DNA of 50,294 bases from an uncultured Candidatus Saccharibacteria bacterium (GTDB lineage Bacteria > Patescibacteriota > Saccharimonadia > Saccharimonadales > JAGQNJ01): NCBI GenBank assembly GCA_965231045.1, contig OZ246406.1:1-50294 (forward strand). The letters run 5' to 3'. Below the pieces are notes generated by a model. It saw only the letters and a list, made by a program, of their open reading frames with translations, had not been told where the DNA came from and ran no database searches. Below, piece by piece: positions 29,749 to 50,294 of the stretch (positions are counted from its first letter, which is position 1; the number at the start of each line of letters is the position of its first letter). Made by a program: the position numbers and the translations under genes.

Positions 29749-30606
29749 ATGCTAATGGTTGAGGGTAATAGGATGACCTCCAGGTCTGTAATTTCAACCT
29801 TTATTGCTAGTATTCTGCTAGTAGTTTTTAGTGTTCTGTATTTTGTTTCTATGCCAGCAAAAGCTATTAGCATATCACAAGGCTATAGCACTACTGATAA
29901 AGATCTACAGGTGAGTATGATTGCAGCACTAGCATCAGAAAGCAGTGACAACAAGCCAATCGTAGAGAGAGCTAGTGAAAATAACAGAGGTAAGGTTGTT
30001 GGTATAGTTACAACAATAGATTCCAGTTTATTAACACTAACCAATGCTGATGCGAAGGTCCATGTTGCTACATCTGGAGAGACAAATACATACGTAACAG
30101 ATCTTAACGGTAACATCAAAAAAGGTGATTTTATAGCCGTATCTCCACTTAAGGGAGTTGGCATGAAGGCCTCGGATACTGATAACTTCTTGGTTGGGGT
30201 GGCGCTTGATGATTTCTCTAGCAACAACGCTAAAACAGAACAGGTTCAGACTGTAGATGGCGGATCCCGTACAGTTTTAGTTAGCCAGATTAAAATAAAT
30301 GTCGCTCCTCAAGATCGAGGACAATCAGCGGCCAAACAAAAGCCGTTTCTAGTTCTATTTGGCCAATCTGTTAGCGGCAAATCAGTGTCTCAGACACAAG
30401 TAATAGTCGCGTTAATCATCTTTCTTATCCTTCTCATCGTAGAGGGATCAATTATATATGGTGCAATACACAGCACGATCATTTCTATAGGAAGGAATCC
30501 ACTGGCAAGGACGGCCTTATTCAAGCAACTATTACAAGTTTCATGGCTTGCGCTTGTGATACTGGTTTTTGGTCTTGGAACAATTTACGCAATACTCTGG
30601 ATATAA
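29749..30606 (+). CDS. Exported membrane protein with C-terminal helix-GRNP-helix hairpin (paralog 1)
   Basis: N-terminal signal/TM; DLNGNIKKGDFIAVSPLKGVGMKA domain; SIGRNPLA at 30484-30507 between two TM helices. Confidence 0.8.
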   Translation: MLMVEGNRMTSRSVISTFIASILLVVFSVLYFVSMPAKAISISQGYSTTDKDLQVSMIAALASESSDNKPIVERASENNRGKVVGIVTTIDSSLLTLTNADAKVHVATSGETNTYVTDLNGNIKKGDFIAVSPLKGVGMKASDTDNFLVGVALDDFSSNNAKTEQVQTVDGGSRTVLVSQIKINVAPQDRGQSAAKQKPFLVLFGQSVSGKSVSQTQVIVALIIFLILLIVEGSIIYGAIHSTIISIGRNPLARTALFKQLLQVSWLALVILVFGLGTIYAILWI

Positions 30607-30858
30607 GATTTCGTTGTAAAAATATACAAAACACAGTAATTAACAGGGAAGAAATGATAAGTATAGCTATTGATAATTTAACAACAGTAAATTGACAAAA
30701 TTTGCATAAATCGTAAACCTAAAAATGACCAAAAAAATCTGTGGATAACTTCGGTAATTTGTATACATTTTGTATACATTTTTCTTTAGTTAGCACCCCT
30801 ATTGGAGTAGAATTAAATTAAGGTATGCATAAGCAAAAAGCTTAGAACTACAAAAACC

Positions 30859-33800
30859 ATGGACAACCAATATCAAAATACCCAAAATCTGAGTACTAAT
30901 GTTACTCCTAACCAACAGGGGACCGGGGTTCCTTTGCCTAGCTCTGTGTTCGTACCTCAAGTTGCATCAAATGAGCAAGTAGTGACACCTGTTGAGGTAC
31001 CAGTGTTGCCAGAAGCAAGCTCTCTTGAACAGAGTCCAACCACTGCTCCAGGGTCAATTACTCCTCAGCCGGTAAACAGTAATCTCACTCCTCAGATTCC
31101 AGGCGACAGGCCTAATCCTCAGCCAAGTCTAGAGCCTACCCGTACTGGCATTAGCAAGAGGTTATTAATTATTGGCGGTATTGCTCTTGTAATTGTCTTG
31201 TTAGTTGTTCTTCTGGCGGGTTTAATCAGTAAAAAAAATGCAGCTAAGTTGCAGTCACCAGCACAGTCAGTAAGTGAGCAAGGAATAACACTTGGTAGTA
31301 GCACAACTGAAACACTTAATGTTCTCCAGCTTAAGGGTAGCCATGACAAATTGATTGTTAATGGCGACGTTATTAGCACTGGAAGGCTGACTATGGCCTC
31401 AGGTAGTTACTTCGGGCAATTTGTAACAAATAACTTATCCCAAAACAGAGAGTATTTATTGCCTGATGCTTCTGGCACAATATGTCTCGATGTTAACAAC
31501 TGTAACTTTGCTAAAGCTGGTGGGGTAGTCTCTTCGATTAATGGCGTGGCTGGTGCTATATCTGTTGGGTCAGGCTTAACAATACAGGGCAATACGATTA
31601 TTAACTCTCAGACTCCGACAACAGTTAACGGGTTTAATGGTAATGTCGTGGTTCAAGGAACCACTAATCAAGTATTAGTAAGTTCGGCTGGTGGAGTTAT
31701 TACTTTAGCTACTCCACAAGATATTGCCATTACTAGCAGCCCAACATTCTCTTCGATTAATATCTCTGGTAACACAACGACCATAAATAATATCGCTTAT
31801 ACCTGGCCAGTATCACAGGTGAACGGTGTACTTGTGAACGATGGAAGCGGCGGGCTTACTTGGTCAGCAATCGCAGCAGCTTGCCCAACATGTTTTGTTA
31901 ATGGTGGTAATAGTTTCGGTGGTAATGCGACCCTTGGTACAAACGACAACTTTAGCTTAGCTTTCGAGACTAACGGCATTAGCCGTGTATTTTTAGATAC
32001 AACTGGTAATGTGGGAATATCATCGGCGTCAAACGGAGCAAAACTGTATGTACCATATCAGACTGGCGATGTAGGTGGCACGGCATCTGCTTTCTTGTTC
32101 GCTGGGAACACCTTGGCTCAGTTTGGTGATAGTGCAAACACTAACAATAACTTAATAGCTGTCGATGGTGAAAGCTATAGTGGGGTAGGTGTTCAAGGTA
32201 TCTCGACTACTGGAATAGGTGTTGCTGGTTACAGCAATGGAAGTGGGGGTGGCTCTTTTTCTGCGGGAGTATTTGGTTATGATCCAAATTCAGGTGGGTC
32301 TGGAGTAATAGGCTTGGGCGGTTTATTTGGTGCTGGTGATGGAATTGGTGTGGCTGGGTATAGCGGAACAAGTTATGGTATTTTTGGCCAGTCATCCAAC
32401 GGAATTAGTGGATTTTTCCAGAGTACGTGTACGGGACTATTTGGTTGTTCTGGTTCATCGGCAATGCCAACACTGGTAACTAAGCAGTATAGTAGTTCCA
32501 CGACGGATTTGTTTCAGGCACGAGACTCAGCTGACAACGCACGGTTTGCCATTGGCTACAATGGTCATACTGGGATCGGCAACCTTAATAATGCAGCTAT
32601 TGATGACTGTTCACTTGTGCTCACTACTTGCTACGCAGATCTAAACATCCAAGAAGGTGTAACTGATTTTTCTAGAGCAAATAACTACGGGATAAATAAC
32701 TTTATGGTGCTTAGCCCAAGTGCTGACACGAGTAATGCCGTAGCAGGAATTAATAATAATATAGCAACAGATATAAATGCGTTTAATTACAGCACGATAA
32801 GGGGTAATCTTACTACCGTAGCTCATTCAGGTACTGGCGGAATTTCCTTTGCAGAAGCAAATCATCTAACAACCGTTAACTACAGTTCGGGTACTATAGC
32901 TTTTGCTAAAGGAACGCAGAGCGATGTTGTTAACGCTGGGTCTGGCAGCATTGGTTCTGCAACTGGCTTAGATGCTGATGCTTATAACTTCAGTACTGGT
33001 ACGATAGGCACGACTACAGGAATTGGGGTAAACAGTGGAAATCTTGGTAGCGGAGCTGTTACAACCAACTACGGGATAAATATTGCTACAGGATCAAGTG
33101 GTTCTGGAGGACTAACAGATAACTATGGCATAAACATTCAAACTGCTGCTCATACAGGAACAATTACAAACAACTATGGTTTGTATATTCAGGACCAATC
33201 AGCGGCTTCAGCAAATTCATACAACCTTTACTCAGCGGGAACAGGTACTAATTACTTTGGTGGTAACATAGTTGCGGCAACACTTGGGTCGGCCGATACA
33301 TCAACTTATCTTTGCCGTAACTCTTTAAACCAGATTGCAGCTTGTAATAGCACTGGTGCGGGAGCCGCTTTTGTCCAGGGTGGCAATAGTTTTGGGGCGA
33401 CGGCAACACTGGGCACAAACGACAATAATTCATTAAATATTCGAACAAATGGAACAACACGAATTGCTGTTGATACCTCCGGCGGCGTAACGGTTCGCAA
33501 TCAGCTGGCGGTTGGTTCGACAGCGAATATAACAAATAATACAACCTTAAGTATCGCTGAAACCTCTACGGCTACCAGCGGGAATATTTATGGTAGCAAT
33601 AACGTCTTAAACTACAATCCAAGTGGTGCGACAACGGCAGTTGTTTACGGTGGTGTTAATCAAATTACTACACCAGCCGGTAATGCCCAGAACATTTCGG
33701 CAATTGTCGGAGGCCAAAGTCGTGTTGATCATAGTGGCACAGGTACAGTTTCTAGCATATACGGACAGTATGGATATGTAGGCGGGATAAGTGGTTCTGG

Positions 33801-36800
33801 TGCCGTCACGACGGCAATAGGTAGTATTGGCCAAGTCGATAACTTTAGCTCCTCTACATACACCCAAACAGCAGGTCTGTATGGTATTGCAAAAAATGGT
33901 GCAGGAGGTTCAATTACCACTGCTTATGGTGTATTTGGTAACGTTGCTAACGGTTCCACAGGATCAATAGGCTCAGCATATAACTTCTCTAGTCTTCTAC
34001 AAAACGTTAATGCCGCAGGTACGATAACAACTGCAGCTGGGTTCTATGCTCAAAATCCTAGCAATGCCGGCACTATAACTACAAACTACGGTATATTAGT
34101 TGATCCACAAACAGCCGGTGTTAGTGACTACGGTGTTGCTATTGGTGCTGCCGACACCCAAACTCTTTGGGTTTCAAGCAATGCCGACAATACTACCGCG
34201 AGTGCTGGTATAGCTTTTGGCAGTTCGAGAGATACCAACTTATATCGTTCAGCCGCCGATACTTTACGTACTGATGATATGTTTTCACTCGGCACACTAG
34301 GCACAACAGATACGGCGACATATCTGTGTAGAAATAGCTCAAATATTTTGGCGGCTTGTTCTGGCACTTCAACTGGGTCAGCCTTTGTTCAGGGTGGCAA
34401 TGCATTCGGAGCTGCTGCAGTACTAGGTACTACTGACGCCAATGACTTACAGATAAAAGTTAACGGTACCAATACATTTACGTTTAATGCTGGCAGTGGT
34501 GGGTCATTCCAGTCGAATGGCTACCAGTTTAGAGGTTCAAGCACTCTTAACAATGCTAGTGCACCTGCTTATGCCTTTACTGGTGCAACCAACTCAGGAC
34601 TATTCAACCCATCAACTACTATTGTTGGCGTAGCAGTAGCTGGCTCAGAGGTAGCTCGCTTTAGTGGCTCTGCTCTTGAAGTTGCTTCAACTGGAGCGGT
34701 AGGGACTGTTGAAAAATTCCGGGTTAATACACCTACGACTGTTGATAACTCAGCTAACGCAGTTATTGCTACTTCAGCCACAACCAGCAAAGGTCTTGTT
34801 ATCCAGGGCGCCGCCAGCCAAACGGCAGACCTGCAACAGTGGCAAAATAGTGCTGGAACTGTTTTGTCGAGCGTCGGAAGCAATGGATTTGTGGGAATTG
34901 GTAAGGCCGCCGCCGCAGGCTATGCACTTTCGATTCGCCAGACAGGCACAGCCCAGGACATATTATTTGATAGAACCGATTCCAATGGGGTACGCATTGG
35001 TGCTTACTGGCAGACCGGTGCCGCCAATGGTGTGACCATCGAAGATTTAATCTCAAGTGTCACGAGTTCGCCGGGCGGCTACGGTATTCGCCTTGGTAAC
35101 GTCTTTAGCACCGGAATTACATCTGGTAACTATGATCAGGTTCGGATCATGACGAACAACTTCAACCCAGCTTCTGGCAGTTCACAATTCAACTACTTGG
35201 CCATCCAAGGTGGTGCGATTACTCAAACTGGCACGGCTAGCGGCATTACTAGGGGCATCCTCATTAACCCAACACTTACCTCGGCTGTCGACTTCCGTGG
35301 TATCGAAATCGCCAACGCCTCTGGTAAAGGCTTGTGGCAGACCGGTTCCTCAGTACCAAACTACTTTGCTGGCAACGTTGGTATTGGCTCATCGGGTACA
35401 GCTGGCACGGTTGAAAAGTTCCGGGTTAACACACCAACCACGGTTGATAATACCGCCGCTACCATCCTTTCGAGTGGTGCGACCACCAGTAAAGCCCTAG
35501 TTGTTCAAGGTGTAGCCAGTCAATCAGCTAACTTACAGGAGTGGCAAGATAGTACAGGGGCAACTAAGTTATATGTAGGCAAGACAGGTTCTTTTGGTGC
35601 AGTGACCATTGGGGCTGATGCAGCCACAAACAGTAGTGCATTAGTATTAAAATATGCTCAAACTCTTACTTATCTGACTGCCGCAGATAGTGGGAATAGC
35701 TCCCTCCTAACAATTGATAATACTGTTGACCCTACATGGAAGAATCTAATAGTAAAAGCAAAGGCTGCACAGACTGCTGATCTAGTGCAGTTCCAAAACT
35801 CAGCTGGGACAAACTTACTATCTGTTACTAGTGCAGGTGCTCTCCAGGGTAACAATGGTTCTGGCACTAACGTCGCTGGTAGTAACATAACTATCAATGG
35901 TGGCCAAGGTACTGGCACAGGCGTGGGTGGCAACATCGTCTTCCAGTACGCTCCGGGTGGTACGAGCGGCAGCAGCCTTAATGCGTTGCAAACGGCTTGT
36001 AGTATATCTGGTAGCACGGGTAGCTTGAGCTGCCCTGGTGCAGGCGCTAGCAGTGAACGGTTTGGAGCTGGGGCAACGGCAGCAGGTGCAAGTTCGGTGG
36101 CCCTGGGTAATGGTGCCTCAGCTCCTGCATCATCATCAATAGCAATTGGTTTGTCGGCAGTTACCCCAAGTTCTGGTGGTGTTGGGTCTGTCGCTATTGG
36201 TAATAGTGCCTCAGTAAGTGGTACCGGTGCCGGGTCGGTAGTTATTGGTTATACTGCCAGCTCGGCTGGTTCGGGAAACGTCATTATCGGTGCAACAGCA
36301 ACCGCCTCAGCGGCAACTTTCAATAACGCTGTGGCAATTGGTATTGGAGCCAGTACTAGTTTAAGGGGTACGGTTGTCGGTGCTGCCAGTGTAGTCGGCC
36401 AAGATGCCGTAGCTATCGGAAGTAATATTACCACCAATAATACGTGGTCGGTGGCAATTGGAGGGGGGGCAGCAACAGGCGGTACTTCGGCGATTGCCAT
36501 CGGTATCAGCGCTAGTGCGCCATCGGCTAACTCAATTGCTATTGGCGCTAATATGGCAACTACTGCAGGCGCCCAACTAGTGGTAGGTCCAATTACAACT
36601 GCCTATCTTGGTAACGGAGTTACTAATGCCACGCCAAACAGCATTAGTATCAATGCCACCGGCGGCTCCGGCACCAACATTGCTGGAGCCAGCCTGACCC
36701 TAGCTGGTGGCCGTGGCACCGGTACCGGTAACGGCGGTGACATTAATCTACAAGTTGCCAAGCCGGGAACTAGTGGATCATCGGCTAATAGTTTGGCGAC

Positions 36801-39429
36801 CGTAGCAACATTCAGTGGAATAAACGGTGCAGCAACCTTACAGAACTCTGCCGACTCAGCGACTGCACTTCAGGTTAAAAATGCTGCCGGCAGTACCACG
36901 GTACTCGATGTTGATACTACAAACACCCGAGTAGGTATTGGTACAAATGCGCCGGGTGCATTACTTGAATTAAGCCAGACCAACCAAGGCCCAAATTACG
37001 GATTACGCATAACTCAGAGTAGTGTTTCGGTAAATCAATACATTGGTTCAGGGGCATCATATTATCTGGATATTCCTACCAATACCAGATTTCAAATTGG
37101 AAACCCAGCAACTGGCACCGGTACGGGAGCTATTTATGCCGGTCGCTATTTGACACTTGCAACGTGGAATGGCAGTAACTTAGGTGGCGTGAAGCTGACT
37201 AATAATGGAACAGATGTTCTGACACTACAGGGATCCGACAATAATCTCTATTTTGGTAACGGGGTTACTAGTGCAACGCCAACCGGCCAGAAACTGATCG
37301 CCACCGGCGGCTCTGGCACCAACATTGCCGGCGCTAGCCTGACACTAGCAGGTGGTAAGGGTACTGGCACCGGAAATGGTGGGGATATCGTCTTCCAGTA
37401 CGCCCCAGCTGGCTCAACTGGTAGCACTGCTAACACGCTTACTACTGCCTGTACTATCTCTGGCACCAACGGTAGCTTGAGCTGTCCTGGGGCAGGCGGT
37501 AGCAGTGAACGATTTGGTGCAGGTAGTACAGCAGCAGGCGGCAATTCAACTGTCGTTGGGAATGCCGCCAGTGCTTCTACCAGTAGCGGTGTTTCTGTCG
37601 GCTATTCTGCATCTGCGGGTGGGACGTCTGGCTCGATTGCAATAGGAAGCTCAGCAAGCACAACAGTTACAGATGCGATTGCAATCGGTAGAAGTGCAAG
37701 TTCAACAGGGAGTGGTAACGTTGCACTCGGTGCGGCTGCAACAGCCGGATTTGGTTTAAGTACTGCTATAGGCGCCTCTGCTTCAGCAACAGGCAGTACA
37801 GCAATAGCTTTGGGCGCTAGCACATCCGCCGGCCTCAACTATTCAATAGCTCTCGGAGGCGGTGCGACAACAACGGCAGCAAACCAGTTAGTGATTGGCG
37901 GAAGTACAGCATTTATCAGTTCTGCTTATATAGGTAACGGTGTTACCAATGCTGCCCCACAAAACTTCACCCTCAATGCCACAGGTGGCTCGGGTACTAA
38001 CATTGCTGGTGCCAGCTTGACACTTGCTGGCGGACAAGGAACCGGTACAGGTGTGGGAGGGGCTATTAACTTCCAAACAAGTGCTGCTGGAGCTAGTGGT
38101 TCGTCACTTAACTCATTGAGCACTGTATTTAGCCTGGCAGCTGGTACAGGTGCTGCAACCTTCCAAAATACAGCCAACAGCACTACGGCACTTGTGGTGA
38201 AGGGTTCATCTGGTGCTACTAATCTTCTGCAGGTTGATACCAATGATGTTCGGGTTAAAGTAGGTTATGGGAGTACTGCGCCATCAAGTAGCTATGGTGT
38301 TCTACATGTGCTTAATAATACTGCTGGATCTGCTGACACGCTCGTAGCTGATAATAGCACCTCAACAGGTTCAATCATTGTCGGTAAAGACAATGGAACG
38401 GCTGTCTTTACTGTAGGAGATAACGGCGTAACAACTGTACAAACCAGCACAAACAATACAGCTGGGTTTGTAGTAAAAGACTCAGGTGGTACAAACAATG
38501 TTCTTGGTGTTGATACGACCAATGACAGGGTAGCTATAGGTACAGGCACAACTGCTCCAGCCTACACTTTAGATGTTCTATCAGGTGGTGCTGACGCTAC
38601 CACGGTTGCTCAGTTTAAGAATGCTGGTGCCACAAGTTGTACGGTTCAACCTGGTGGTACTGGCTTTGCGTGTAGCTCGGATGCAAGGCTAAAGACCAAT
38701 GTTGCCACCGTTATTAACCCTGAAGATACTATCAAGGCTTTGAGAGGTGTGACCTTTAACTGGATTACTGATCCAAACGGCCAAACGCACGCTGGCTTTA
38801 TAGCCCAAGAACTTGAACAGGTGATCCCTAGTGCCGTATCAACTGATAGCAACGGCTATAAGGTGGCAAATTACAGTGAGGTTATCCCTTATCTAGTTGG
38901 CACGGCTCAATATCAAGATACTCAGATTACTGGTTTGCAACAGGGGCAAGTTAACTTACAGCAAACTCAAACGGCAAGCAATACTAGTCTTGCAAGCTTA
39001 GAGGGCAGGGTGAATACTCTAGAGCAGAAGGTATCAGCGCTTGAAGCTAACCAGGGTAACACTAACTTTGCTAGCCTAAACGTCTCTGGTCCAGCCACTA
39101 TCCAGACTCTAACAGTAACCGGCTCAGCTACAATCGCTAACCTAACTGTTACTGGTAACGCGACCATTGCGGGCAACCTAACTATCCAAGGCCATGTACT
39201 GGGTAATAGTGATACCAGGGGAACAATTACCATGCCTGCCGGTCAAACCCAGTACAAGTTTACCTTTGTTAAACCTTACGCTAGTGGTAGCAAACCAGTT
39301 GTAATCCTAACGCCAAGCAATACATTTGCTCCAAGCTATAGAGTGGATGGCACGGATACAGACTTTACCATATACTTCGAGACGCCAGCCCCAACGGATG
39401 TGATTATGAACTACCAGGTGCAGCAGTAA
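30859..39429 (+). CDS. Giant (2856 aa) membrane-anchored fibre/adhesin with YadA-like head repeats and peptidase S74 chaperone
   Basis: Pro-rich N-terminus, single TM near aa 103-122, G/S/T/A/N-rich repeats (SVALG/SIAIG), SDARLK...GFIAQELEQVIP at about 38677-38900, then coiled coil and a terminal beta domain. Confidence 0.88.
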   Translation: MDNQYQNTQNLSTNVTPNQQGTGVPLPSSVFVPQVASNEQVVTPVEVPVLPEASSLEQSPTTAPGSITPQPVNSNLTPQIPGDRPNPQPSLEPTRTGISKRLLIIGGIALVIVLLVVLLAGLISKKNAAKLQSPAQSVSEQGITLGSSTTETLNVLQLKGSHDKLIVNGDVISTGRLTMASGSYFGQFVTNNLSQNREYLLPDASGTICLDVNNCNFAKAGGVVSSINGVAGAISVGSGLTIQGNTIINSQTPTTVNGFNGNVVVQGTTNQVLVSSAGGVITLATPQDIAITSSPTFSSINISGNTTTINNIAYTWPVSQVNGVLVNDGSGGLTWSAIAAACPTCFVNGGNSFGGNATLGTNDNFSLAFETNGISRVFLDTTGNVGISSASNGAKLYVPYQTGDVGGTASAFLFAGNTLAQFGDSANTNNNLIAVDGESYSGVGVQGISTTGIGVAGYSNGSGGGSFSAGVFGYDPNSGGSGVIGLGGLFGAGDGIGVAGYSGTSYGIFGQSSNGISGFFQSTCTGLFGCSGSSAMPTLVTKQYSSSTTDLFQARDSADNARFAIGYNGHTGIGNLNNAAIDDCSLVLTTCYADLNIQEGVTDFSRANNYGINNFMVLSPSADTSNAVAGINNNIATDINAFNYSTIRGNLTTVAHSGTGGISFAEANHLTTVNYSSGTIAFAKGTQSDVVNAGSGSIGSATGLDADAYNFSTGTIGTTTGIGVNSGNLGSGAVTTNYGINIATGSSGSGGLTDNYGINIQTAAHTGTITNNYGLYIQDQSAASANSYNLYSAGTGTNYFGGNIVAATLGSADTSTYLCRNSLNQIAACNSTGAGAAFVQGGNSFGATATLGTNDNNSLNIRTNGTTRIAVDTSGGVTVRNQLAVGSTANITNNTTLSIAETSTATSGNIYGSNNVLNYNPSGATTAVVYGGVNQITTPAGNAQNISAIVGGQSRVDHSGTGTVSSIYGQYGYVGGISGSGAVTTAIGSIGQVDNFSSSTYTQTAGLYGIAKNGAGGSITTAYGVFGNVANGSTGSIGSAYNFSSLLQNVNAAGTITTAAGFYAQNPSNAGTITTNYGILVDPQTAGVSDYGVAIGAADTQTLWVSSNADNTTASAGIAFGSSRDTNLYRSAADTLRTDDMFSLGTLGTTDTATYLCRNSSNILAACSGTSTGSAFVQGGNAFGAAAVLGTTDANDLQIKVNGTNTFTFNAGSGGSFQSNGYQFRGSSTLNNASAPAYAFTGATNSGLFNPSTTIVGVAVAGSEVARFSGSALEVASTGAVGTVEKFRVNTPTTVDNSANAVIATSATTSKGLVIQGAASQTADLQQWQNSAGTVLSSVGSNGFVGIGKAAAAGYALSIRQTGTAQDILFDRTDSNGVRIGAYWQTGAANGVTIEDLISSVTSSPGGYGIRLGNVFSTGITSGNYDQVRIMTNNFNPASGSSQFNYLAIQGGAITQTGTASGITRGILINPTLTSAVDFRGIEIANASGKGLWQTGSSVPNYFAGNVGIGSSGTAGTVEKFRVNTPTTVDNTAATILSSGATTSKALVVQGVASQSANLQEWQDSTGATKLYVGKTGSFGAVTIGADAATNSSALVLKYAQTLTYLTAADSGNSSLLTIDNTVDPTWKNLIVKAKAAQTADLVQFQNSAGTNLLSVTSAGALQGNNGSGTNVAGSNITINGGQGTGTGVGGNIVFQYAPGGTSGSSLNALQTACSISGSTGSLSCPGAGASSERFGAGATAAGASSVALGNGASAPASSSIAIGLSAVTPSSGGVGSVAIGNSASVSGTGAGSVVIGYTASSAGSGNVIIGATATASAATFNNAVAIGIGASTSLRGTVVGAASVVGQDAVAIGSNITTNNTWSVAIGGGAATGGTSAIAIGISASAPSANSIAIGANMATTAGAQLVVGPITTAYLGNGVTNATPNSISINATGGSGTNIAGASLTLAGGRGTGTGNGGDINLQVAKPGTSGSSANSLATVATFSGINGAATLQNSADSATALQVKNAAGSTTVLDVDTTNTRVGIGTNAPGALLELSQTNQGPNYGLRITQSSVSVNQYIGSGASYYLDIPTNTRFQIGNPATGTGTGAIYAGRYLTLATWNGSNLGGVKLTNNGTDVLTLQGSDNNLYFGNGVTSATPTGQKLIATGGSGTNIAGASLTLAGGKGTGTGNGGDIVFQYAPAGSTGSTANTLTTACTISGTNGSLSCPGAGGSSERFGAGSTAAGGNSTVVGNAASASTSSGVSVGYSASAGGTSGSIAIGSSASTTVTDAIAIGRSASSTGSGNVALGAAATAGFGLSTAIGASASATGSTAIALGASTSAGLNYSIALGGGATTTAANQLVIGGSTAFISSAYIGNGVTNAAPQNFTLNATGGSGTNIAGASLTLAGGQGTGTGVGGAINFQTSAAGASGSSLNSLSTVFSLAAGTGAATFQNTANSTTALVVKGSSGATNLLQVDTNDVRVKVGYGSTAPSSSYGVLHVLNNTAGSADTLVADNSTSTGSIIVGKDNGTAVFTVGDNGVTTVQTSTNNTAGFVVKDSGGTNNVLGVDTTNDRVAIGTGTTAPAYTLDVLSGGADATTVAQFKNAGATSCTVQPGGTGFACSSDARLKTNVATVINPEDTIKALRGVTFNWITDPNGQTHAGFIAQELEQVIPSAVSTDSNGYKVANYSEVIPYLVGTAQYQDTQITGLQQGQVNLQQTQTASNTSLASLEGRVNTLEQKVSALEANQGNTNFASLNVSGPATIQTLTVTGSATIANLTVTGNATIAGNLTIQGHVLGNSDTRGTITMPAGQTQYKFTFVKPYASGSKPVVILTPSNTFAPSYRVDGTDTDFTIYFETPAPTDVIMNYQVQQ

Positions 39430-39446: not shown

Positions 39447-40004
39447 ATGAAACAACAGGTTATATTAGCCTCAGGCTCACCACGAAGAAGGGAATTATTA
39501 CAGAAAGTTATTCCTGACTTTACGGTTGTGCCACCTGATATCGATGAAGTTATAGACCCCAATTTACCAATTGGTAAGGCAATCGAGAAGTTGGCTTTGG
39601 ATAAAGCTAAGTCCGTTTCAGCACGCTATCCTGAAGCGATGGTTATAAGTGGCGACACAATTGTAACGCTCAAACATAAGATCTTACTTAAACCGGTAGA
39701 TGCTAACGACGCAAAGAGTATGCTTAGAAGTCTCAGTGGCCAAAAACAAGAGGTAATAACAGGCGTTGCAATCGTTAACATGGGTGGTCGTACAATATCG
39801 TTCTTTGAGGTTACTCGGATGAAGTTTCGTGAACTATCAGATAAAGAGATAGGAGACTATGTGGCAACCGGAGAGCCTCTAGATAAAGCAGGGGCATATG
39901 CTGTTCAGGGTGGGGCAAAGGACTTTATAGAAACTATTGAGGGTGATTTTGATAATGTCGTAGGGCTGCCAATAAAAAGAATACAACAGGTATTAAACAG
40001 CTAG
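39447..40004 (+). CDS. maf: Maf family nucleotide pyrophosphatase
   Basis: ILASGSPRRRELL, GDTIV, DKAGAYAVQG, NVVGLP. Confidence 0.95.
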   Translation: MKQQVILASGSPRRRELLQKVIPDFTVVPPDIDEVIDPNLPIGKAIEKLALDKAKSVSARYPEAMVISGDTIVTLKHKILLKPVDANDAKSMLRSLSGQKQEVITGVAIVNMGGRTISFFEVTRMKFRELSDKEIGDYVATGEPLDKAGAYAVQGGAKDFIETIEGDFDNVVGLPIKRIQQVLNS

Positions 40005-40106: not shown

Positions 40107-40808
40107 ATGGAAGAAATTAAAGTTAAATATAATGATGACTCGAAAGATAGTACTTCTTCGAAGTCTAAAAAGTCAAAAAAGCGAAGTGGCAAAGCGATAA
40201 TAGGAGTATTAATTCTTGTAATACTGCTTCTTGGGGCGGGACTTGCTTTCTATTATCAGAAATACCAAAAAGTTAAGAAAAATCCTGATATAGTAACCAA
40301 AGAAGAAACACAAGCAATCGTTGAAAAAGTTGGTAAGTTAATCGATTTGCCAAAGGATGAAACTCCAACCTTAGCGACTATTCTTGATAAGGAAAAATTA
40401 AAAGATCAGGCGTTTTTTAATAACGCTAAAAATGGCGATAAGATTCTAATATATACAAAGGCGCAGAAGGCGATTATTTATAGGGAAGCTGACAATAAAA
40501 TCATTAATGTTGGACCAGTAACATTGAACCAAAGTAATCAGGTGCTTATATCTGTAGTAAATGCAGGTGGTAATACTGCTGATGCTCAAAAGAAGGTTGC
40601 CGAAAAATATGGAGCAGTCGTCAACGTTGTTCAGTCGGGCGATGCCAAGAATAAGGCTGCAATCAAGAAAACAGTAGTAGTTGATACGACAGGCCGTTTT
40701 AGTAAAGAGTCGCAAGAAATTGCCGACATGCTTGGTGGAAGTGTTGGTCAAACCCCAGCAGGTGAGTCTGTTCCTGAAGGCGCAGCGATAGTAATCTTTG
40801 TAAAATAA
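40107..40808 (+). CDS. Single-pass membrane protein with C-terminal LytR_C-like domain
   Basis: KR-rich N-terminus, TM IIGVLILVILLLGAGLAFYY; SVVNAGG...GDA...KTVVVD...IADMLGG pattern. ATG 40107 follows GAGAGGG. Confidence 0.65.
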   Translation: MEEIKVKYNDDSKDSTSSKSKKSKKRSGKAIIGVLILVILLLGAGLAFYYQKYQKVKKNPDIVTKEETQAIVEKVGKLIDLPKDETPTLATILDKEKLKDQAFFNNAKNGDKILIYTKAQKAIIYREADNKIINVGPVTLNQSNQVLISVVNAGGNTADAQKKVAEKYGAVVNVVQSGDAKNKAAIKKTVVVDTTGRFSKESQEIADMLGGSVGQTPAGESVPEGAAIVIFVK

Positions 40809-40825
40809 AGCCTTATTATGACTTG

Positions 40826-40850
40826 TTGTACCTGTATATAACAGGTACAA
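40826..40850. promoter_or_regulatory. Perfect inverted repeat overlapping a promoter
   Basis: TTGTACCTGT-ATATA-ACAGGTACAA; TTGTTG-N17-TACAAT overlaps it. Confidence 0.7.
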
Positions 40851-40877
40851 TATTTTCAATAAGCATAAGGGGAGCAG

Positions 40878-41711
40878 GTGCTGTTTAAATCAAAGTTTAC
40901 TAAGCCGGGCGTAGTAGGTATTTTAACGAGTTTCTGCCTGTTATTTACATTGTTTACACCTATGATCGCAACTGCCTCCAGTGTGGTTTCTCAAGGATTC
41001 AAGGTAAATGGACAACTTAGTTCAGGTCAAGCTGTATCACTTAACGGAGATACATTGTCCCAAGCTACACCCGAAAATCAAAACCAACTCTACGGGGTTG
41101 TAATTAGCCAGCAAGATGCGGCTATTAGTTTGTCTAGCGGGGGTAACCAGGTTCAGGTAGTTACAAGTGGCCCAGCGTCTGTCATAGCGTCGGATATTAA
41201 CGGAGATATAAAAACGGGTGATCAGCTTGCCGCTTCACCGATTAGCGGTGTAGTAATGAAGGCTACCGAAAACGGTAAGTCATTGGGTGTTGCTCAGCAA
41301 GACATGAGCTCCCTAAGCTCCTCATATAAAAAACAGACGGTAAAGGCCAAAAACGGCACCACGAAGTCGGTTAATGTGGTGCTGCTAGCCGCTATTGTTA
41401 ACATTCACGATTATCAAGCAAATGCACCAAGTACACCAGCAATATTACTACCATTACAAACTGCTCTTTCAAATAGTATTGGTCGACAAGTATCTACGGT
41501 AAGGGTAATTATTGCTATGGCAATTCTATTGGTAACACTTATTGCCGTTCTAGTGATTTTATACGCGGCATCATCTAGCAGTATTCGATCGGTGGGTCGT
41601 AACCCAACAGCTCAGCGAGCCATTATCGTTAGCATGTTACAGGTTATTGGCATCATTGCGCTTATTTTGTTGGCGGCGTTCGGATTAATAATGTTGATTA
41701 TTAGGGGTTAG
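40878..41711 (+). CDS. Exported membrane protein with C-terminal helix-GRNP-helix hairpin (paralog 2)
   Basis: Signal peptide; SDINGDIKTGDQLAASPISGVVMKA; SVGRNPTA at 41589-41612; stop 2 nt before the alpha-like gene. Confidence 0.8.
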   Translation: MLFKSKFTKPGVVGILTSFCLLFTLFTPMIATASSVVSQGFKVNGQLSSGQAVSLNGDTLSQATPENQNQLYGVVISQQDAAISLSSGGNQVQVVTSGPASVIASDINGDIKTGDQLAASPISGVVMKATENGKSLGVAQQDMSSLSSSYKKQTVKAKNGTTKSVNVVLLAAIVNIHDYQANAPSTPAILLPLQTALSNSIGRQVSTVRVIIAMAILLVTLIAVLVILYAASSSSIRSVGRNPTAQRAIIVSMLQVIGIIALILLAAFGLIMLIIRG

Positions 41712-41713
41712 CC

Positions 41714-43131
41714 GTGGATGTGAGTGCAAGATTTTCAAAGCTAATTAAAGAAGGAAAACCACATGCAAAGGTGTTGGCGGTACAAGACAATCTGGTTATT
41801 ACTTCGTCACTGCCTGGGGCTAAGGTTTATGGAAGTGTTCAGTTTGCCGAAGGTGCTAAAGGTGTTATTTGGCAAATTAACGATCATGGCTATGCTGTTT
41901 TACCCCTAAATAATCACACTGTAAGGCCGGATGAACCAGTGGTCGTAAAAACTGATGAACTGTCACTTGGCGTTGGAAAAGAGCTGCTGGGCAGAGTTGT
42001 TAATCCGATAGGGCAAGCGCTTGATGGGCGAGGCTATATTGAGCCTACCGCACATGTGCCATATTTTAGGGCGGCACCAAGCTTCGGAGAGCGTGAGGAG
42101 CTTACAGAACAACTAGAAACGGGTATTACTATGGTTGATACACTGCTGCCGGTTGTTAAGGGCCAACGTATTGCAATAATGGGTGACAGTAAGTCTGGTA
42201 AAACTGGTTTTTTGAGCCAAGTTGCGATACACCAAGCAAAGCAGGGTCGTGTGGTTGTATATGTTTTGGTTGCCAAGCGTCGCCAAGAGATGAATCGTTT
42301 GATTGAAAAATTTGCTAACAGTGAGCACATGGATAATATAGTACTCGTTGTCACAACCAGTTCAGACCCGCTGGCGCTCGGTGTGCTTGCCCCATATGCT
42401 GGCTGTGCAATTGGTGAGTACTTTTGGCATCATGGTCAAGACACGGTTGTCATCTATGATGATTTTACGTCTCAAGCGAAGCTATATAGAGAAATGTCAC
42501 TCATGCTTGGTAACAATCCAGGCCGTGAAGCATATCCGGGTGATATGTTTCATGTTCAATCGGCACTTCTTGAACGAGCAGGAAAGCTCAAAAGTAATGG
42601 CGCGAGCCAAACAGTGCTGGTGACTGGCTTAACCCCAGGTAATGATCTTACTGGCTATCAATCAACTAGCCTTATATCAATGACGGATGGACAGATTGTA
42701 TTTGATACCAACTTATTACAGACCGGAAGACAACCAGCTATTAATAGTGGACTTTCAGTTAGTCGTATTGGTGGACGTGTCCAGGATGCAAAAAAACAGG
42801 ACCTCGTGCAATCAATTATCAAGCAGCTTTCCGATTATAAAAGTGCAAAAGAGTACAGTAGATTTAATGATCAATCTAGTGAAATTATTGAGCGTGAGAT
42901 TCTATTGGGTGAACAGATTCAAGAAGCCTTTAATCAGCGAAGTAATGAATGGTTTTCAATTGCTGAACAAACAGTACTTTTGAATGCGATACTTACTAAC
43001 AAAAGTAATAACGATCTAAACATAGAAAAATTAAAAGAACTTGTAAGAAAAAACTATAAAATTTTAGCTTCTGCAGATGAAAAAACGATCGATAAGGTAA
43101 CAAAAATCTTGGTAAAAGAGGGGAATAAATC

Positions 43132-43135
<4 letters not shown>
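41714..43135 (+). CDS. atpA: Divergent F1 ATPase alpha-like subunit
   Basis: GQRIAIMGDSKSGKT, GREAYPGDMF, LLERAGK, TDGQI, PAINSGLSVSRIGG. Confidence 0.9.
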
Positions 43136-45564
<2,429 letters not shown>

Positions 45565-45632: not shown

Positions 45633-45666
45633 ACAATTTTAATGTATAAAACAACTGAGGGAAGTT

Positions 45667-48600
45667 GTGGCTTTAAAAGCAAATAACGATCAAAAGAAGT
45701 CGGGGAACATCGATACACTTTCTAGCCGTTTGGCAAGAGAGAATATTCTTAATGAGTCCAATTTTGGCAAGAATTCTAGCGCCATGGAAACCCCGGTATC
45801 TGTCCAAGAGAAGAGGTACTTTAGATTACGGCTGTGGCACTATTTACTATTAGCTGCAGCAATCATTGCTTTAATTCTTTTGGGATGGGGCGCACGAAAG
45901 ATCTTTTTTTCGAAATCTACCAACGGCGTTCAGGGTGCAAGCGAGTACAACACTACCTCTCTTGATGTAAAGGGTTTGCAATCTTCGCAAGGGAGTACAT
46001 CTACAAATCAACTGGTTATCAATGGTGCAACAATTGTTAATGGTAATGTTGTGGCCCAAAATTTTTCAGGTAATGGCTCAGATTTAACTAATTTAAATGC
46101 CAGTAACATATCACTAGGTACGCTGAATAATGCTCGACTTAGCCCAGATGTTGCGCTGCTCGGACGAACTCAGAGCTTCACGGGCGGCAATAGCTTTACC
46201 GGATCTGTTAGTTTACCGGCAACAGTGACATTTGGCGGTCAGAAATATACTTTTCCAAGTGCCCAAAACGGAGGGTTTTTAAGGACTGATGGAAATGGTA
46301 ACTTGACTTGGAGTGCCAGTGGAGCTGGTGGCGGTGGCGGCTGTGTATCTCAGTGCGTTAATAATGGGGGTGATTTGTACGGTAGCAATATATCAATTGG
46401 ACCAAATGATCCATTCAGCATGTCATTAAGAACAAACGGCACTGATCGCTTAACAATTTCTCCTACCGGAGCGGCGGCATTCAGTGGAAATGTTACAGCG
46501 CCCTTCTTTTTTGGCAACGGATCTAATCTTAGCAATCTTGATGCGGGACAAATTACTACAGGCACGCTAAGCAACGCCCGTCTTAGTAACAGCGTTACTG
46601 TTCAAGGCAACACGTTTAATGGGGCTGATCAGTTGGTACAGTTAAACAGTCTTGGCTATTTGCCAACATTAAACGGCGGTAATTTAACAAGTCTAAATGC
46701 AAGCTTTGTTACAAGTGGCACACTGTCTGATGCGCGTCTTAGTGGTAACGCTGCGCTGCTCGATAATACCCAAGTTTTCACTGGTGCTAAAACATTCACA
46801 CAGCCAATAACAGTAAATACATTAACGCCAAATGCAGCAATGAGCATTGGAGCATCGGGGCAGAACCTTACATTACAAGGCAATGGGTCAACTAGCTGGA
46901 CGTCAACGAAGTCAGGCTTTACGACCACAGTAAACTTTACGGGTACACCAACAGGAGGTGTAGTTTACCAATTTGACTCTTCGGTTACGCCAGGAACTTA
47001 TACTATCTGTACTTCAGCAGGCTGTGGCGCCGGTGGCGGTGTTAATTCACCTGGAGGCACCGTTAACACGCTGGCTAAGTTTACCGGCGGGCAAATTATT
47101 GGCAATAGCACAATTACTGATAACGGGAGCATTATTACATTGGGAACACCAATTGTACGGGTTAATGGTGCGACCGGAAACTATGCCTTGGACGCAACAG
47201 GAGACATTAACGCTAGTCAATATTTACGTGTTGGTGGCAATATTGTCTGTGATAGTAGTGGTTGTATAGCTGGTGGAGGTGGCGGTGCATTTATAAATAA
47301 CTCCGTTCTTCAGCAAACTGGAGCTAACTTCTTCATACAGTCGGCTGGGGTAGGTAATGTAACGGGAATTATTAAGCAATTGGCAAGTCAATCAGCCGAT
47401 CTATTACAATTCCAAAATTCAGCTGGCAGTGTAATTGCCGATGTATATGCGAATGGGGCAATAAATTCCCAGGGCTATTATGTAGCTGGTGCAGCTCTAA
47501 ACAGCACCCATCTTAGTGATACAAGTAATATAGCTCGTTTAAGCCTTGGAAGTGTCCAGACATTCACGACCGATAATACATTTGCTGGAAACTTTATCGC
47601 CCAAAGATCAAGCAATTCAACTACTGCATTCAGAGTACAGAATTCTGGAGGGGCAGATGTTTTGGTCGCTGACACAACCAACAAACGAGTCGCGATTGCT
47701 GGCACTAGTGCGAGCTATCCACTAGACGTAACAGGTGATATTAACTCCAGTACTGGGCTAAGGGTTGGGGGCAATCTTGTCTGTGATAGCACCGGTTGTG
47801 CTGCATCAGGCAGTTCTGGCTATTACATTCAGAATGGTGTAGCCACTCAGGCAAACGCCAACTTTAATATAAAAACGGTTAGTGCAAATGATGTCGTGGG
47901 TATTTTGCAAGGCACAACTAGCCAGGCAGTTGATCTTTTCCAAATAAAGGATAGTCTTGGGACTAATTTGTTCAAAGTTGGGAATACCGGTCTTACAACA
48001 ATAAATAACGGCATTTCATTCACCGGGGGAAATCAAACAATTCAAAATAACACCGGTACATTGAATGTTGTTGCTAACAATACTACCTTTGCAATAAATA
48101 ATACGACCGTTATAACCAGCGGAGATGGCACGGGTATTCGTTATGCAGGCAACTATGCCTACCAACCATTATCATTGGTCACAAGGCAATATGTTGATGA
48201 TTCAATATCTGGAGTAGTTGCCGGTACCTGTCCAACATGCTTTGTTAATGGTGGAAATAGCTTTGGTACATCGGCAAGTGTTGGTACAAATGATAATAAT
48301 ACATTTACGATAGAGACAGCCAACACCTCAAGAATATTTCTTGGTACAAATGGGGGTGTGGCTATGCAAAGTTCTACGGCAAGCGGCAACTATGCTACTG
48401 CATCAGGGGCGTCATTAGCAAGCGGTGACTATTCGTTTGCAGTAGGTGGCGGTACTGCCAGTGGCCTAGAATCATTTGCTGGTGGTTACAATATCAATCC
48501 TATTACCGCTAGCGGACGTGGATCTATGGCATTTGGCTCAGCCGATAATGGCGCTATTACAGCAGCTGGAGTTGGCTCGGTAGCAATTGGTAATAATGTG

Positions 48601-50294
48601 CTTGCCAATACTGTATCGGGCAACTGGTCAACAGCAATTGGTGTGGGTGCTCGAGCAAATGGTACAGGGTCGATGGCAGTCAATGCTGGCCAAACAACGG
48701 GTGATTATTCATTTGCTGCTAATGCCGGTTCTACAGCCAGTGGCTTACAATCTTTTGCCATAAATAATGGAACAGCTAGCGGTGTGAATAGTTTTGCAGG
48801 AGGGTACAACGCTGGCGGTGGGGCAATCACGGCTGCTGGTAATGGCTCCATGGCCTTTGGCTATACAGGCAACGGCCCAATAACAGCCAATGGAGTTGGT
48901 TCGTTTGCGGGTGGTAACCAAACCTCAACTAGCGTCAATGGAATATACTCGATTGCATATGGCTATGGTGCCCAGGCAAACGGTAACTACTCGGCAGCCT
49001 TTAATGGGTCAACAGCGAGTGGTACAGGTGCAACAGCTATTGGAAGTACTTTAATCACGGCAAGCGGTACTTATTCTTTTGCTGGTGGATACGGTGCTTC
49101 GGCTATCAATTCTACTAGCAATGGTTCGTTTGCGTTTGGTAGGGCAGGTGGCTATACCATTGATGCTAATGGGGAAGGTTCGGTTGCACTTGGTTTTAGT
49201 AATGATGGTGCTATTACTGCTACAGGTGCTGGTTCATTAGCGGGCGGTAACAAATCTTCAACTGGCCTAAATGGAATTTACTCGATTGCATATGGCTATG
49301 GTACACAAGCAAACGGTAACTACTCGGCAGCCTTTAATAATGCAACCGCCAGTGGTAATGGCGCAACGGCTATCGGTAGTACATTAGTTACTTCTAGCGG
49401 AACATATTCTTTTGCGGGTGGGTATGCCCAAAGTGCAATTAGTTCTACTACTAACGGTTCGTTTGCGTTTGGTAGGGCAGGTGCTTATACCATTACTGCT
49501 TCTGGCGAAGGAGCAACTGCACTTGGTTTTTCTCGTGATGGCGCAATCCTAGCAAGTGGTCTTGGCGCCTTTGCAGGTGGTACCAATTCTACTGCAAGTA
49601 ATGAATTTGCCTTTGCGTATGGTACTGGAACTCAGGCAACGGGCGCATATTCGACAGCCTTTAATAACTCTGTTGCCAGTAATACTGGTGCCTTTGCCAT
49701 AAATAATGCAACTGCTAGTGGCGTGCTTAGTTTTGCTGGCGGAAGTAATGGCTCGCAGGCATATGCGCAAGATTCATTTGCCTACGGATATAATGCAAAA
49801 TCTAATAATATAAACGGAATAGCGTCAGTTGCTTTTGGACGCGATACTACTGCAAACGGGTCATATTCATTTGCTGCTGGTTATGGTGCCGCATCGAGTG
49901 GAGATGCCTCAGTAGCGTTAAACTATTCCAGTGCCAGTGGCCCTGGTGCTACATCTATGGGGAGTACATTGGTAAGCTCGAGCGGGGCTTACTCGTTTGC
50001 AGGTGGGTATGCCCAAAGTGTAATATCTGCCACCAATAATGGTTCACTAGCGTTTGGTAGATCTGGAGGTTATACCATAAGCTCTACTGGTGAAGGAGCG
50101 GTTGCATTTGGAGCATCGCGTGATGGCGCGATCCTGGCAAGTGGCTATGGTGCCTTTGCGGGTGGTACTGCTTCAACTGCCAGCAATGAATTTGCCATTG
50201 CTTACGGAAATGGTACGCAGGCCACAGGATTATATTCGGCAGCTTTTAACAATGCTCGTGCTACCAATACAGGGGCATTTGCAACCGGTAGCGG
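45667..50294 (+). CDS. Second giant membrane-anchored fibre/adhesin with YadA-like head repeats (>1540 aa, 3'-truncated by window)
   Basis: GTG 45667 after GAGGGA; MALKANNDQKK..., TM LWHYLLLAAAIIALILLGWG; CPTCFVNGGNSFG module; SFAGG/SVALG/SAAFN repeats. Frame spot-checked to the window end; absent from the ORF track, presumably because it has no stop in the window. Confidence 0.88.
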   Translation, partial: MALKANNDQKKSGNIDTLSSRLARENILNESNFGKNSSAMETPVSVQEKRYFRLRLWHYLLLAAAIIALILLGWGARKIFFSKSTNGVQGASEYNTTSLDVKGLQSSQGSTSTNQLVINGATIVNGNVVAQNFSGNGSDLTNLNASNISLGTLNNARLSPDVALLGRTQSFTGGNSFTGSVSLPATVTFGGQKYTFPSAQNGGFLRTDGNGNLTWSASGAGGGGGCVSQCVNNGGDLYGSNISIGPNDPFSMSLRTNGTDRLTISPTGAAAFSGNVTAPFFFGNGSNLSNLDAGQITTGTLSNARLSNSVTVQGNTFNGADQLVQLNSLGYLPTLNGGNLTSLNASFVTSGTLSDARLSGNAALLDNTQVFTGAKTFTQPITVNTLTPNAAMSIGASGQNLTLQGNGSTSWTSTKSGFTTTVNFTGTPTGGVVYQFDSSVTPGTYTICTSAGCGAGGGVNSPGGTVNTLAKFTGGQIIGNSTITDNGSIITLGTPIVRVNGATGNYALDATGDINASQYLRVGGNIVCDSSGCIAGGGGGAFINNSVLQQTGANFFIQSAGVGNVTGIIKQLASQSADLLQFQNSAGSVIADVYANGAINSQGYYVAGAALNSTHLSDTSNIARLSLGSVQTFTTDNTFAGNFIAQRSSNSTTAFRVQNSGGADVLVADTTNKRVAIAGTSASYPLDVTGDINSSTGLRVGGNLVCDSTGCAASGSSGYYIQNGVATQANANFNIKTVSANDVVGILQGTTSQAVDLFQIKDSLGTNLFKVGNTGLTTINNGISFTGGNQTIQNNTGTLNVVANNTTFAINNTTVITSGDGTGIRYAGNYAYQPLSLVTRQYVDDSISGVVAGTCPTCFVNGGNSFGTSASVGTNDNNTFTIETANTSRIFLGTNGGVAMQSSTASGNYATASGASLASGDYSFAVGGGTASGLESFAGGYNINPITASGRGSMAFGSADNGAITAAGVGSVAIGNNVLANTVSGNWSTAIGVGARANGTGSMAVNAGQTTGDYSFAANAGSTASGLQSFAINNGTASGVNSFAGGYNAGGGAITAAGNGSMAFGYTGNGPITANGVGSFAGGNQTSTSVNGIYSIAYGYGAQANGNYSAAFNGSTASGTGATAIGSTLITASGTYSFAGGYGASAINSTSNGSFAFGRAGGYTIDANGEGSVALGFSNDGAITATGAGSLAGGNKSSTGLNGIYSIAYGYGTQANGNYSAAFNNATASGNGATAIGSTLVTSSGTYSFAGGYAQSAISSTTNGSFAFGRAGAYTITASGEGATALGFSRDGAILASGLGAFAGGTNSTASNEFAFAYGTGTQATGAYSTAFNNSVASNTGAFAINNATASGVLSFAGGSNGSQAYAQDSFAYGYNAKSNNINGIASVAFGRDTTANGSYSFAAGYGAASSGDASVALNYSSASGPGATSMGSTLVSSSGAYSFAGGYAQSVISATNNGSLAFGRSGGYTISSTGEGAVAFGASRDGAILASGYGAFAGGTASTASNEFAIAYGNGTQATGLYSAAFNNARATNTGAFATGS

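Follow-up and report, generated by a model that had tools for sequence, protein, structure and literature searches.

What could an F1-like ATPase do in a bacterial cell when its genes stand among genes of giant surface fibres and no proton-conducting part is encoded beside it? The question is raised by a stretch of 50,294 nucleotides (hereafter the window) from an uncultured Candidatus Saccharibacteria bacterium, contig OZ246406.1 of assembly GCA_965231045.1; the host genome is a single contig of 840,197 bp, 98.5% complete, and the window covers its bases 1-50294. We read the ATPase genes of the window as one copy of an F-type ATPase that occurs throughout Patescibacteria, has no subunit a and is blind to ions; with it comes a stray rotor gene of a second copy, and the machine would exert ATP-driven torque on surface fibres. 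We put the probability of this reading at roughly 60%. Its anatomical part we hold with high confidence; the mechanical function is plausible, and on it we would lean neither way.

The window cluster, read entirely on the + strand, opens with GRNP2 (277 amino acids (aa), 40878-41711), assigned by AlphaFold2, Foldseek, hhalign and a tree as the putative c-subunit-like rotor protein of the cluster. Its stop lies 2 bases ahead of F1-like alpha (473 aa, 41714-43135; Pfam, NCBIfam and motif table); then follow gamma (284 aa, 43132-43986; Pfam ATP-synt, E 9e-28), beta (443 aa, 43983-45314; Pfam, NCBIfam, motifs and tree) and an epsilon open reading frame (ORF) recognized by Pfam ATP-synt_DE_N only (45238-45564). 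Alpha and gamma overlap by 4 bases, as do gamma and beta; the real start of epsilon is likely to be 45292 or 45304, giving a protein of 86-90 aa, and the beta and epsilon genes share at least 11 bases. The gene order, common strand and overlapping alpha-to-epsilon genes described in the initial annotation of this locus were thus confirmed from the coordinates.

Are these genes the ATP synthase of the cell? A search with PF00006 located three alpha/beta pairs in the genome. One of them belongs to a complete canonical operon at ~193-200 kb (a, c, b, delta, alpha, gamma, beta, epsilon; atpBEFHAGDC), in whose c subunit the loop reads GRNPE and the second transmembrane (TM) helix contains a Glu; looking for such a separate operon had been advised at the outset, and its presence makes the window set an additional F1-like set, distinct from the cell's ATP synthase. 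The remaining pair is on the - strand at ~436-441 kb, in a second F1-like cluster of b-like, delta-like, alpha, gamma, beta and epsilon genes with no a or c gene. Betas of the two F1-like sets are 51% identical to each other, versus 41-44% to the canonical beta. Against the atpD model TIGR01039 (cut-off 462.85) the canonical beta of the genome scored 798, the ~436-441 kb beta 427 and the window beta 387; for alpha, the scores against TIGR00962 (cut-off 484.45) were 741, 364 and 316, and the window gamma reached 76 bits against TIGR01146, under the cut-off of 194. Three of the four tested betas linked to GRNP proteins missed the atpD cut-off, and the fourth, from locus L105, just passed it (486). 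As a separate observation, the alpha/gamma, gamma/beta and beta/epsilon junctions of the canonical operon are filled by small ORFs of 92, 91 and 71 aa with no Pfam match (L007:8828-9106, 10046-10321 and 11720-11935).

The place of the window beta was sought in a tree built with IQ-TREE (LG+C20, alpha root) from betas of E. coli and Prevotella, two N-ATPases, nine canonical Patescibacteria betas and 50 GRNP-linked betas. All 50 GRNP-linked betas formed one clade (SH-aLRT, the Shimodaira-Hasegawa-like approximate likelihood ratio test, 99). The canonical betas of E. coli, Prevotella and the nine Patescibacteria made up a separate clade (support 98), and the N-ATPases a third. A comparison of this kind with canonical F1 and N-ATPases had been called for initially; it put the window beta outside both, canonical Patescibacteria F1 included. 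Within the GRNP-linked clade two sister clades, A2 and A3, were seen, and the window beta was inside A3 (support 100). We conclude from these sequences that GRNP-linked betas represent a lineage apart from the canonical F-ATPase and N-ATPase clades.

How widespread is this lineage, and what does its complete operon contain? A scan of species-representative genomes gave 386 stretches encoding relatives, of which the best 80, Saccharimonadia loci, were fetched. In 76 of the 80 the genes c-like, b-like, delta-like, alpha, gamma, beta and epsilon followed one another on the same strand; outside Saccharimonadia, 19 of 20 loci had a c-like gene, two small ORFs and then alpha, gamma, beta, epsilon. 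Of 75 b-like proteins, 71 have a TM helix at the N-terminus; hhalign matched the b-like proteins to canonical b with 90% probability and the delta-like proteins to canonical delta with 96.5%, the cross-controls staying below 3%. Saccharimonadia operons fall into the subtypes A3, which includes the window cluster, and A2, which is the commonest there and includes the ~436-441 kb cluster. Subunit a was found in none of ~100 related operons, and no conserved polytopic membrane gene was seen in them. With respect to the initial statement that a, b and delta are missing, the absence of a thus holds across the family, and the c-like subunit is also without the carboxylate; the absence of b and delta is true locally, but nearly all relatives keep b-like and delta-like genes. 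The window cluster itself has lost b and delta as a local peculiarity; the same layout without the two genes was observed at one locus (L083) of another metagenome-assembled genome.

The family profile matched 131 of 401 sampled Patescibacteria genomes, with full-length c-like ORFs in at least 46 of them and in many families. Among 1.84 billion representative proteins there were 8456 matches at E 1e-3 and 668 at E 1e-30. What had been described as an F1-like set in a single giant-adhesin locus is a real locus; however, it is not a local oddity but a member of a phylum-wide family (8456 representative clusters).

Does the machine need a canonical Fo? In 12 genomes, 94-99% complete, the operon was present with no PF00119 match (six-frame search included), no PF00137 match and no other F-type alpha/beta pair. 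The F1-like machine does not depend on canonical Fo, because carriers exist without a, c or another F-type pair. The A3 carriers G404, G401 and G406 have two F1-like pairs each, and none of their alpha/beta pairs reaches a canonical score; it may be that some Saccharimonadia hold the ion-blind type only. In G404, the genome of locus L017, the two pairs are found on contig 1 at ~688.9-691.8 and 711.6-714.5 kb, 20 kb apart in a ~900-kb genome. In two other genomes, G022 and G193, the operon (L121: G022:C1:434000-446000) was accompanied by a V/A-type ATPase, whose c is a double hairpin (163-188 aa) and whose A subunit has ~600 aa, and not by a canonical F1Fo. On the other side, the gene table of Southlakia epibionticum from a transposon sequencing study shows one ATP synthase operon only; this cultured species seems to be without the system, in agreement with absence of the family from 8 of 11 sampled f2 genomes. 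Absence from the cultured model may explain the lack of study.

What, then, takes the place of the c subunit? The two GRNP-hairpin proteins of the window had been called paralogues, and indeed they are (33% identity, E 5e-31). Both have a signal-peptide-like N-terminus with an AXA motif, a beta-rich domain of ~150 aa and a C-terminal hairpin of two helices joined by a GRNP loop. An AlphaFold2 model of GRNP2 (predicted local distance difference test score 85) has a signal or TM helix, a beta domain at 36-179 and a hairpin at 207-239/245-276. In Foldseek searches the hairpin matched ATP synthase c subunits (template modelling score 0.72-0.84, root mean square deviation 1.5-1.8 A); the ectodomain matched phage capsid decoration/cement proteins (E ~2e-4). 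When 97 distinct hairpins were aligned to c subunits by hhalign, the probability was 91% (E 9e-7) over 65 columns spanning both helices; the RNP loops coincided, and the canonical Glu column was occupied by a hydrophobic residue. The Pfam model PF00137 (ATP-synt_C) gave full-length matches to three relatives at 17-19 bits, below the 24-bit cut-off, and no match to GRNP1 or GRNP2 themselves; the GRNP family sequence profile found nothing among PDB chains even at E 10. GRNP2 is placed in the A3 clade of the GRNP tree with support 99.

The GRNP loop is invariant in all 97 hairpins. In F-ATPases the R-N/Q-P loop of c is the docking site for gamma and epsilon, and the invariance of the loop argues that the contact with gamma and epsilon has been kept in the GRNP proteins. 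The membrane cores are another matter: an Asp or Glu was observed in either core of none of the 97 hairpins, and none at positions +13 to +33. Position +12 after GRNP is occupied by Gln in 75 of the 97 hairpins, and a few have Glu or Asp there. One could speculate that the enzyme is an unusual ion pump or ATP synthase, which would move H+ or Na+ by this non-standard site (+12 Gln, sometimes Glu/Asp) with the help of some unrecognised substitute for a, and retention of the b-like and delta-like stators would agree with that. However, the alignment puts +12 ~5 residues closer to the cytoplasm than the canonical ion site; the membrane-core carboxylate is missing throughout; neither a PF00119 match in the 12 carrier genomes nor a conserved polytopic membrane gene in the operon was there to serve as a; and epsilon is without the regulatory domain typical of synthases. 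We consider ion pumping very unlikely.

The head of the machine, on the other hand, seems capable of work. In every beta of the family both Walker motifs (A and B) and the catalytic GER-x-RE are intact, and the window beta is by its motifs probably catalytically competent; its DELSEED loop reads SELSVAD. The window alpha keeps the Arg finger (SVSRIGG) and has the P-loop GDSKSGKT, with an N-terminus ~11 aa shorter than the canonical one. Epsilon has a median length of 84-88 aa in the family, compared with 141 aa in canonical enzymes, and consists of the beta-sandwich domain only; the C-terminal helices, which in canonical enzymes inhibit hydrolysis, are missing. Intact catalysis and short epsilon would fit an ATP-hydrolysing enzyme that drives the central stalk. 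Could the window set nevertheless be a decaying duplicate of ATP synthase, functionless or borrowing the canonical a and c? It does lack b and delta, its alpha and beta are shortened, and the full canonical operon of the genome could lend parts. Such decay is improbable in the extreme, even more so than ion pumping: all frames are open and translationally coupled, catalytic motifs are invariant, and the family is ancient, monophyletic and represented by thousands of clusters, some of its members occurring where the genome has no canonical gene for a or c.

A second c-like gene lies upstream of the cluster. GRNP1 (285 aa, 29749-30606, + strand) was recognized from its translation, its paralogy to GRNP2 and a family profile match (E 2.8e-84). 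Its nearest rows in the GRNP tree are A2-type proteins, on a long branch and with no strong support. Since the ~436-441 kb cluster is of A2 type and has no c gene, GRNP1 is probably its displaced rotor gene.

If the machine turns, what is its load? The first candidates are the giant genes next to it. Giant fibre 1 (2856 aa, 30859-39429, + strand; Pfam, terminal sequences and composition) follows GRNP1; its N-terminus has a cytoplasmic tail of ~100 aa, then a single TM helix and an ectodomain rich in G, S, T, N and A, and Pfam places Peptidase_S74, the C-terminal intramolecular-chaperone module, at aa 2607-2660. Giant fibre 2 (2097 aa, + strand; Pfam and sequence) follows epsilon at 45667-50294 of the window and ends at genome position 51960; it begins with a cytoplasmic tail of ~55 aa and a single TM helix and continues as a repetitive ectodomain, after which come YadA-head repeats and then Peptidase_S74, and the C-terminus is H-lectin-like. 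We counted how often an ORF of 800 aa or more lies no farther than 1.5 kb from an operon, the baseline being 11.6% in random 5.5-kb segments of the window's genome. Such a giant ORF was present at all five informative A3 loci and at 15 of the 17 loci from other Patescibacteria classes. In locus L017 the ORF directly downstream of epsilon shares 56% identity with giant fibre 2 over ~1500 aa, and relatives of this fibre take the same position in L016, L023, L012, L022, L013, L021 and L026; in L015, L016 and L017 an S74-type C-terminus is encoded directly upstream of the c-like gene. The neighbouring giants belong to conserved families found across distant lineages, and in their common layout a cytoplasmic N-terminal tail is joined by a single TM helix to an ectodomain that is huge and repetitive. 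Even c-like genes split from the F1 genes still adjoin a giant gene, GRNP1 here and L093 in genome G170.

Giants of more than 2900 aa next to operons of L096 (2-8737, - strand), L102 (10752-19499, + strand), L105 and L094 carry one or two cytoplasmic MerR-type helix-turn-helix domains ahead of the TM helix and huge ectodomain. The tail of the giants is such a MerR-type domain in many lineages. A domain of DNA-binding type is odd on the inner end of a surface fibre, and it might couple the state of the fibre to transcription.

The mechanism that we favour would then be as follows. By homology with F-ATPases, the c-like proteins would assemble as a ring beneath gamma and epsilon. ATP hydrolysis by beta would turn or twist this ring against a stator that b and delta anchor, without any flow of ions, and the crown of exported domains would thereby be moved outside the cell. 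The load would most likely be the neighbouring giant, N-terminally anchored S74-type fibres, with host attachment, tensioning and release, or motility as the outcome. The function initially proposed, in which ATP hydrolysis would drive export, assembly, rotation or retraction of the fibres, is likewise a hypothesis.

Several points weigh against this reading. In A2 operons a giant ORF was found at 7 of 40 loci, which is not an enrichment; the linkage to fibres, regarded at first as a feature to be tested for conservation, holds in the window subtype and in other Patescibacteria classes but is no better than chance (12%) in the sister subtype. Flanking giants do not contain the GRNP ectodomain. 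Contact between fibres and GRNP proteins is suggested by gene adjacency, and ring formation and rotation by homology; the link of the GRNP proteins to c subunits, drawn from hhalign, Foldseek and sub-threshold Pfam matches, points to homology of moderate strength. The window copy has no b and delta of its own; it may borrow b2 and delta2 or run stator-free. Without subunit a, nothing known holds the stator against the ring. Finally, Type 2 and Type 3 of Mycoplasma were compared via NCBIfam cut-offs and PDB scores rather than in the beta tree.

The first two of these points would be expected if the ion-blind device were mechanical with a load other than fibres, such as cell-wall or S-layer remodelling, pili, or surface enzymes in the manner of MIB-MIP, adjacency to giants then reflecting a shared surface neighbourhood. 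A2 operons have, instead of giants, a secreted block (c7, three c1 genes and c9), and in Mycoplasma the system served by the Type 3 ATPase is a pair of surface enzymes rather than fibres (10.64898/2025.12.04.692339). Still, the giants within 1.5 kb of nearly all A3 and other-Patescibacteria operons, their conservation as families over distant lineages and the stray c-like gene that remains next to a giant gene speak for fibres, and we regard a non-fibre load as unlikely, though deserving attention. The A2 block itself, downstream of epsilon in L028-L090 (e.g. L046:15877-20774), is conserved and resembles a WxL-like surface-protein cluster: it encodes a TM-anchored protein (~340 aa, convergent gene), three secreted paralogues of 250-400 aa that end in ...TYICTPTF/Y, and a further protein of ~180 aa.

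The exported GRNP domain was also observed elsewhere as a module, sometimes repeated, in giant ORFs of 1000 to 11,716 aa (Patescibacteria G198, G321, G315, G167 and others), and near the C-terminus of a 2267-aa ORF in L120. The idea that flanking giants carry this ectodomain and pair with it was rejected for the window giants and nearly all neighbours, L120 being the sole exception; the L120 giant was also considered as one ending in a c-like hairpin, and this was rejected too, as neither a GRNP motif nor a hit of the hairpin profile was found in it.

Adjacent giants could also be cargo. The alpha/beta, gamma and b/delta subunits are homologous to FliI, FliJ and FliH, respectively (discussed in 10.64898/2026.10.01.756066), and a secretion or assembly ATPase like FliI-FliH-FliJ is conceivable, in which the head would feed or unfold fibres or other cargo and the c-like ring would be a static platform or pore. 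Besides the homology, the giant genes adjoin the operon and the cytoplasmic N-terminal domains of many giants could be reached by the ATPase. Yet an alpha/beta heterohexamer, gamma, a ring-docking epsilon and the invariant GRNP loop are parts of rotary coupling; the operons showed no genes of an export gate (FlhA/FlhB-like); and an N-terminal TM anchor suits insertion of the giants by Sec/YidC. In addition, FliI/SctN is a single homohexameric ATPase gene, whereas here alpha and beta are separate and score 190-203 bits against cut-offs of 380-630. A secretion ATPase seems to us an unlikely account, a little more so than a non-fibre load.

A more specific form of the torque reading can be proposed, tentatively and with somewhat better prospects than the two alternatives just discussed. 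The GRNP proteins may form a true rotor ring whose crown grips, or whose lumen holds, the trimeric anchors of the giant fibres, F1 then spinning the fibre or loading it torsionally. In V-ATPases the lumen of the c-ring contains single-pass accessory proteins with large luminal domains (ATP6AP1/Ac45 and ATP6AP2); this is an analogy only, but it makes a fibre anchor inside the ring conceivable. If true, a fibre-spinning ring would be the first known rotary motor to deliver ATP-derived torque outside the cell. Fibre spinning might then serve host attachment, release, drilling or motility in ultrasmall bacteria with low proton-motive force, and MerR-type helix-turn-helix tails might report the load on the fibre to transcription.

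Is the system one of those already known? Seven of the eight subunit types of canonical F1Fo (atpIBEFHAGDC) can be recognised in it, and it shares the order after c, the catalytic residues and the GRNP loop of the organism's own c; it differs in having no a, a c without the carboxylate and with an exported domain of ~150 aa, an epsilon without the C-terminal helices, and a separate beta clade. N-ATPases are likewise an early-branching, laterally distinct F-type clade beside the canonical enzyme, and no separate delta gene is annotated in two reference operons (L122 and L123). However, they keep a and an ion-binding c, add AtpQ/AtpR, pump ions and have the order atpDCQRBEFAG; the window beta scored 390 against 752 (TIGR03305) and alpha 300 against 750 (TIGR03324). 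None of the GRNP-linked betas tested reached the N-ATPase, MSC_0618 or MMOB1670 beta cut-offs. Among solved structures ordinary F1 betas were the best matches of the window beta (338 bits), and the M. mobile G1 beta 9io5_A gave 253 bits.

Of the known systems, the Mycoplasma Type 3 'F1-like X0' ATPase (MSC_0618/0619; MMCAP2_0575-0581) comes nearest. It too is an extra alpha/beta/gamma/epsilon set alongside a true F1Fo and has neither an a nor a c subunit (10.64898/2025.12.04.692339); its alpha also has a shortened N-terminus, and MMCAP2_0577, in which a signal peptide precedes an ectodomain and a C-terminal pair of TM helices, has the topology of GRNP1 and GRNP2, the likeness being one of topology only. 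The Type 3 ATPase is linked to surface proteins and required for antibody cleavage by MIB-MIP (10.64898/2025.12.04.692339). On the other hand, the seven genes of the Type 3 cluster include those for a 12-TM and a small cytoplasmic protein but none that is b-like or delta-like, while the Patescibacteria operon has b-like and delta-like genes, no 12-TM protein and another gene order; the host phylum differs; and the window scores were 369 for beta against a cut-off of 570 (MSC_0618) and 210 for alpha against 520 (MSC_0619), other clade members scoring 384-388. The Type 2 gliding ATPase of M. mobile (G1; PMC8406192 and 10.1101/2024.06.11.597861) is a repurposed F1-like ATPase that moves giant surface 'leg' proteins by ATP hydrolysis. 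This motor differs in being a cytoplasmic dimeric chain with phosphoglycerate kinase and without a c-like ring, and the window scored 311 against 850 (MMOB1670) and 275 against 600 (MMOB1660).

In the literature we found no paper connecting an F1-like ATPase without subunit a to Saccharibacteria or Patescibacteria. A 2026 preprint mentions 'unusual genomic neighborhoods' of CPR (Candidate Phyla Radiation) beta homologues, treated as basal F-ATPases (10.64898/2026.10.01.756066); its text does not describe a ring fusion or a missing subunit a. The family of a-less, ion-blind F-type ATPases with a putative, ectodomain-bearing c-ring is large and apparently undescribed, and it bears on how genomes are read. 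In at least 12 good CPR genomes the sole F-type genes are of the ion-blind kind; metabolic reconstructions that call them ATP synthase or proton pump are probably wrong for this reason.

Rotary ATPases are ion-coupled machines, and Patescibacteria account for a large share of bacterial diversity. The repurposed F1-like motors known to us are of two types only, both specific to Mycoplasma. The Patescibacteria type would be a third kind, far wider spread, in which rotor, stator and head are kept, the ion path is discarded and the rotor is partly extracellular. If the mechanical reading holds, ATP-powered work would be done beyond the membrane in cells that have no respiration or outer membrane and little proton-motive force, and the system would offer an entry point to the role of giant surface proteins of episymbiotic bacteria.

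Between the two GRNP genes of the window, after giant fibre 1, are two more genes on the + strand. The maf gene (nucleotide pyrophosphatase, 39447-40004; Pfam Maf, E 4e-58) starts 17 bases past the stop of the 2856-aa fibre gene, within the fibre/ATPase locus. None of 100 related loci gave a maf match, and since maf is not a conserved neighbour it is probably not a component of the ATPase/fibre system. Along with the L21 gene (29389-29694, + strand, by ORF and Pfam reading), maf was ruled out as a conserved neighbour, neither gene being kept beside operons of relatives. The second gene (40095-40808, known from its translation) encodes a 237-aa single-TM protein with a predicted exported C-terminal domain. 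It had been labelled 'LytR_C-like', a label that we could not reproduce: the protein matches no Pfam or NCBIfam family significantly, and Pfam gave a weak CD1107-like match alone. Its homologue adjoins the operon at one other locus only, L096, and its membership in the system is doubtful. As a substitute for subunit b it was rejected, its topology being reversed (Lys-rich N-terminus inside, C-terminal domain outside) and its position unconserved. Between this gene and GRNP2 a consensus scan picked out a terminator-like hairpin on the + strand (12-bp stem and T-run, 40824-40852), which suggests that GRNP2 to epsilon form a transcription unit of their own.

Farther upstream, among housekeeping genes of the window (IF-2, PriA, FtsA, FtsZ, class II ribonucleotide reductase and isoleucyl-tRNA synthetase), a 541-aa protein without Pfam match (8434-10059) is followed by a 1029-aa protein whose sole recognisable domain is a PP2C phosphatase (10142-13231).

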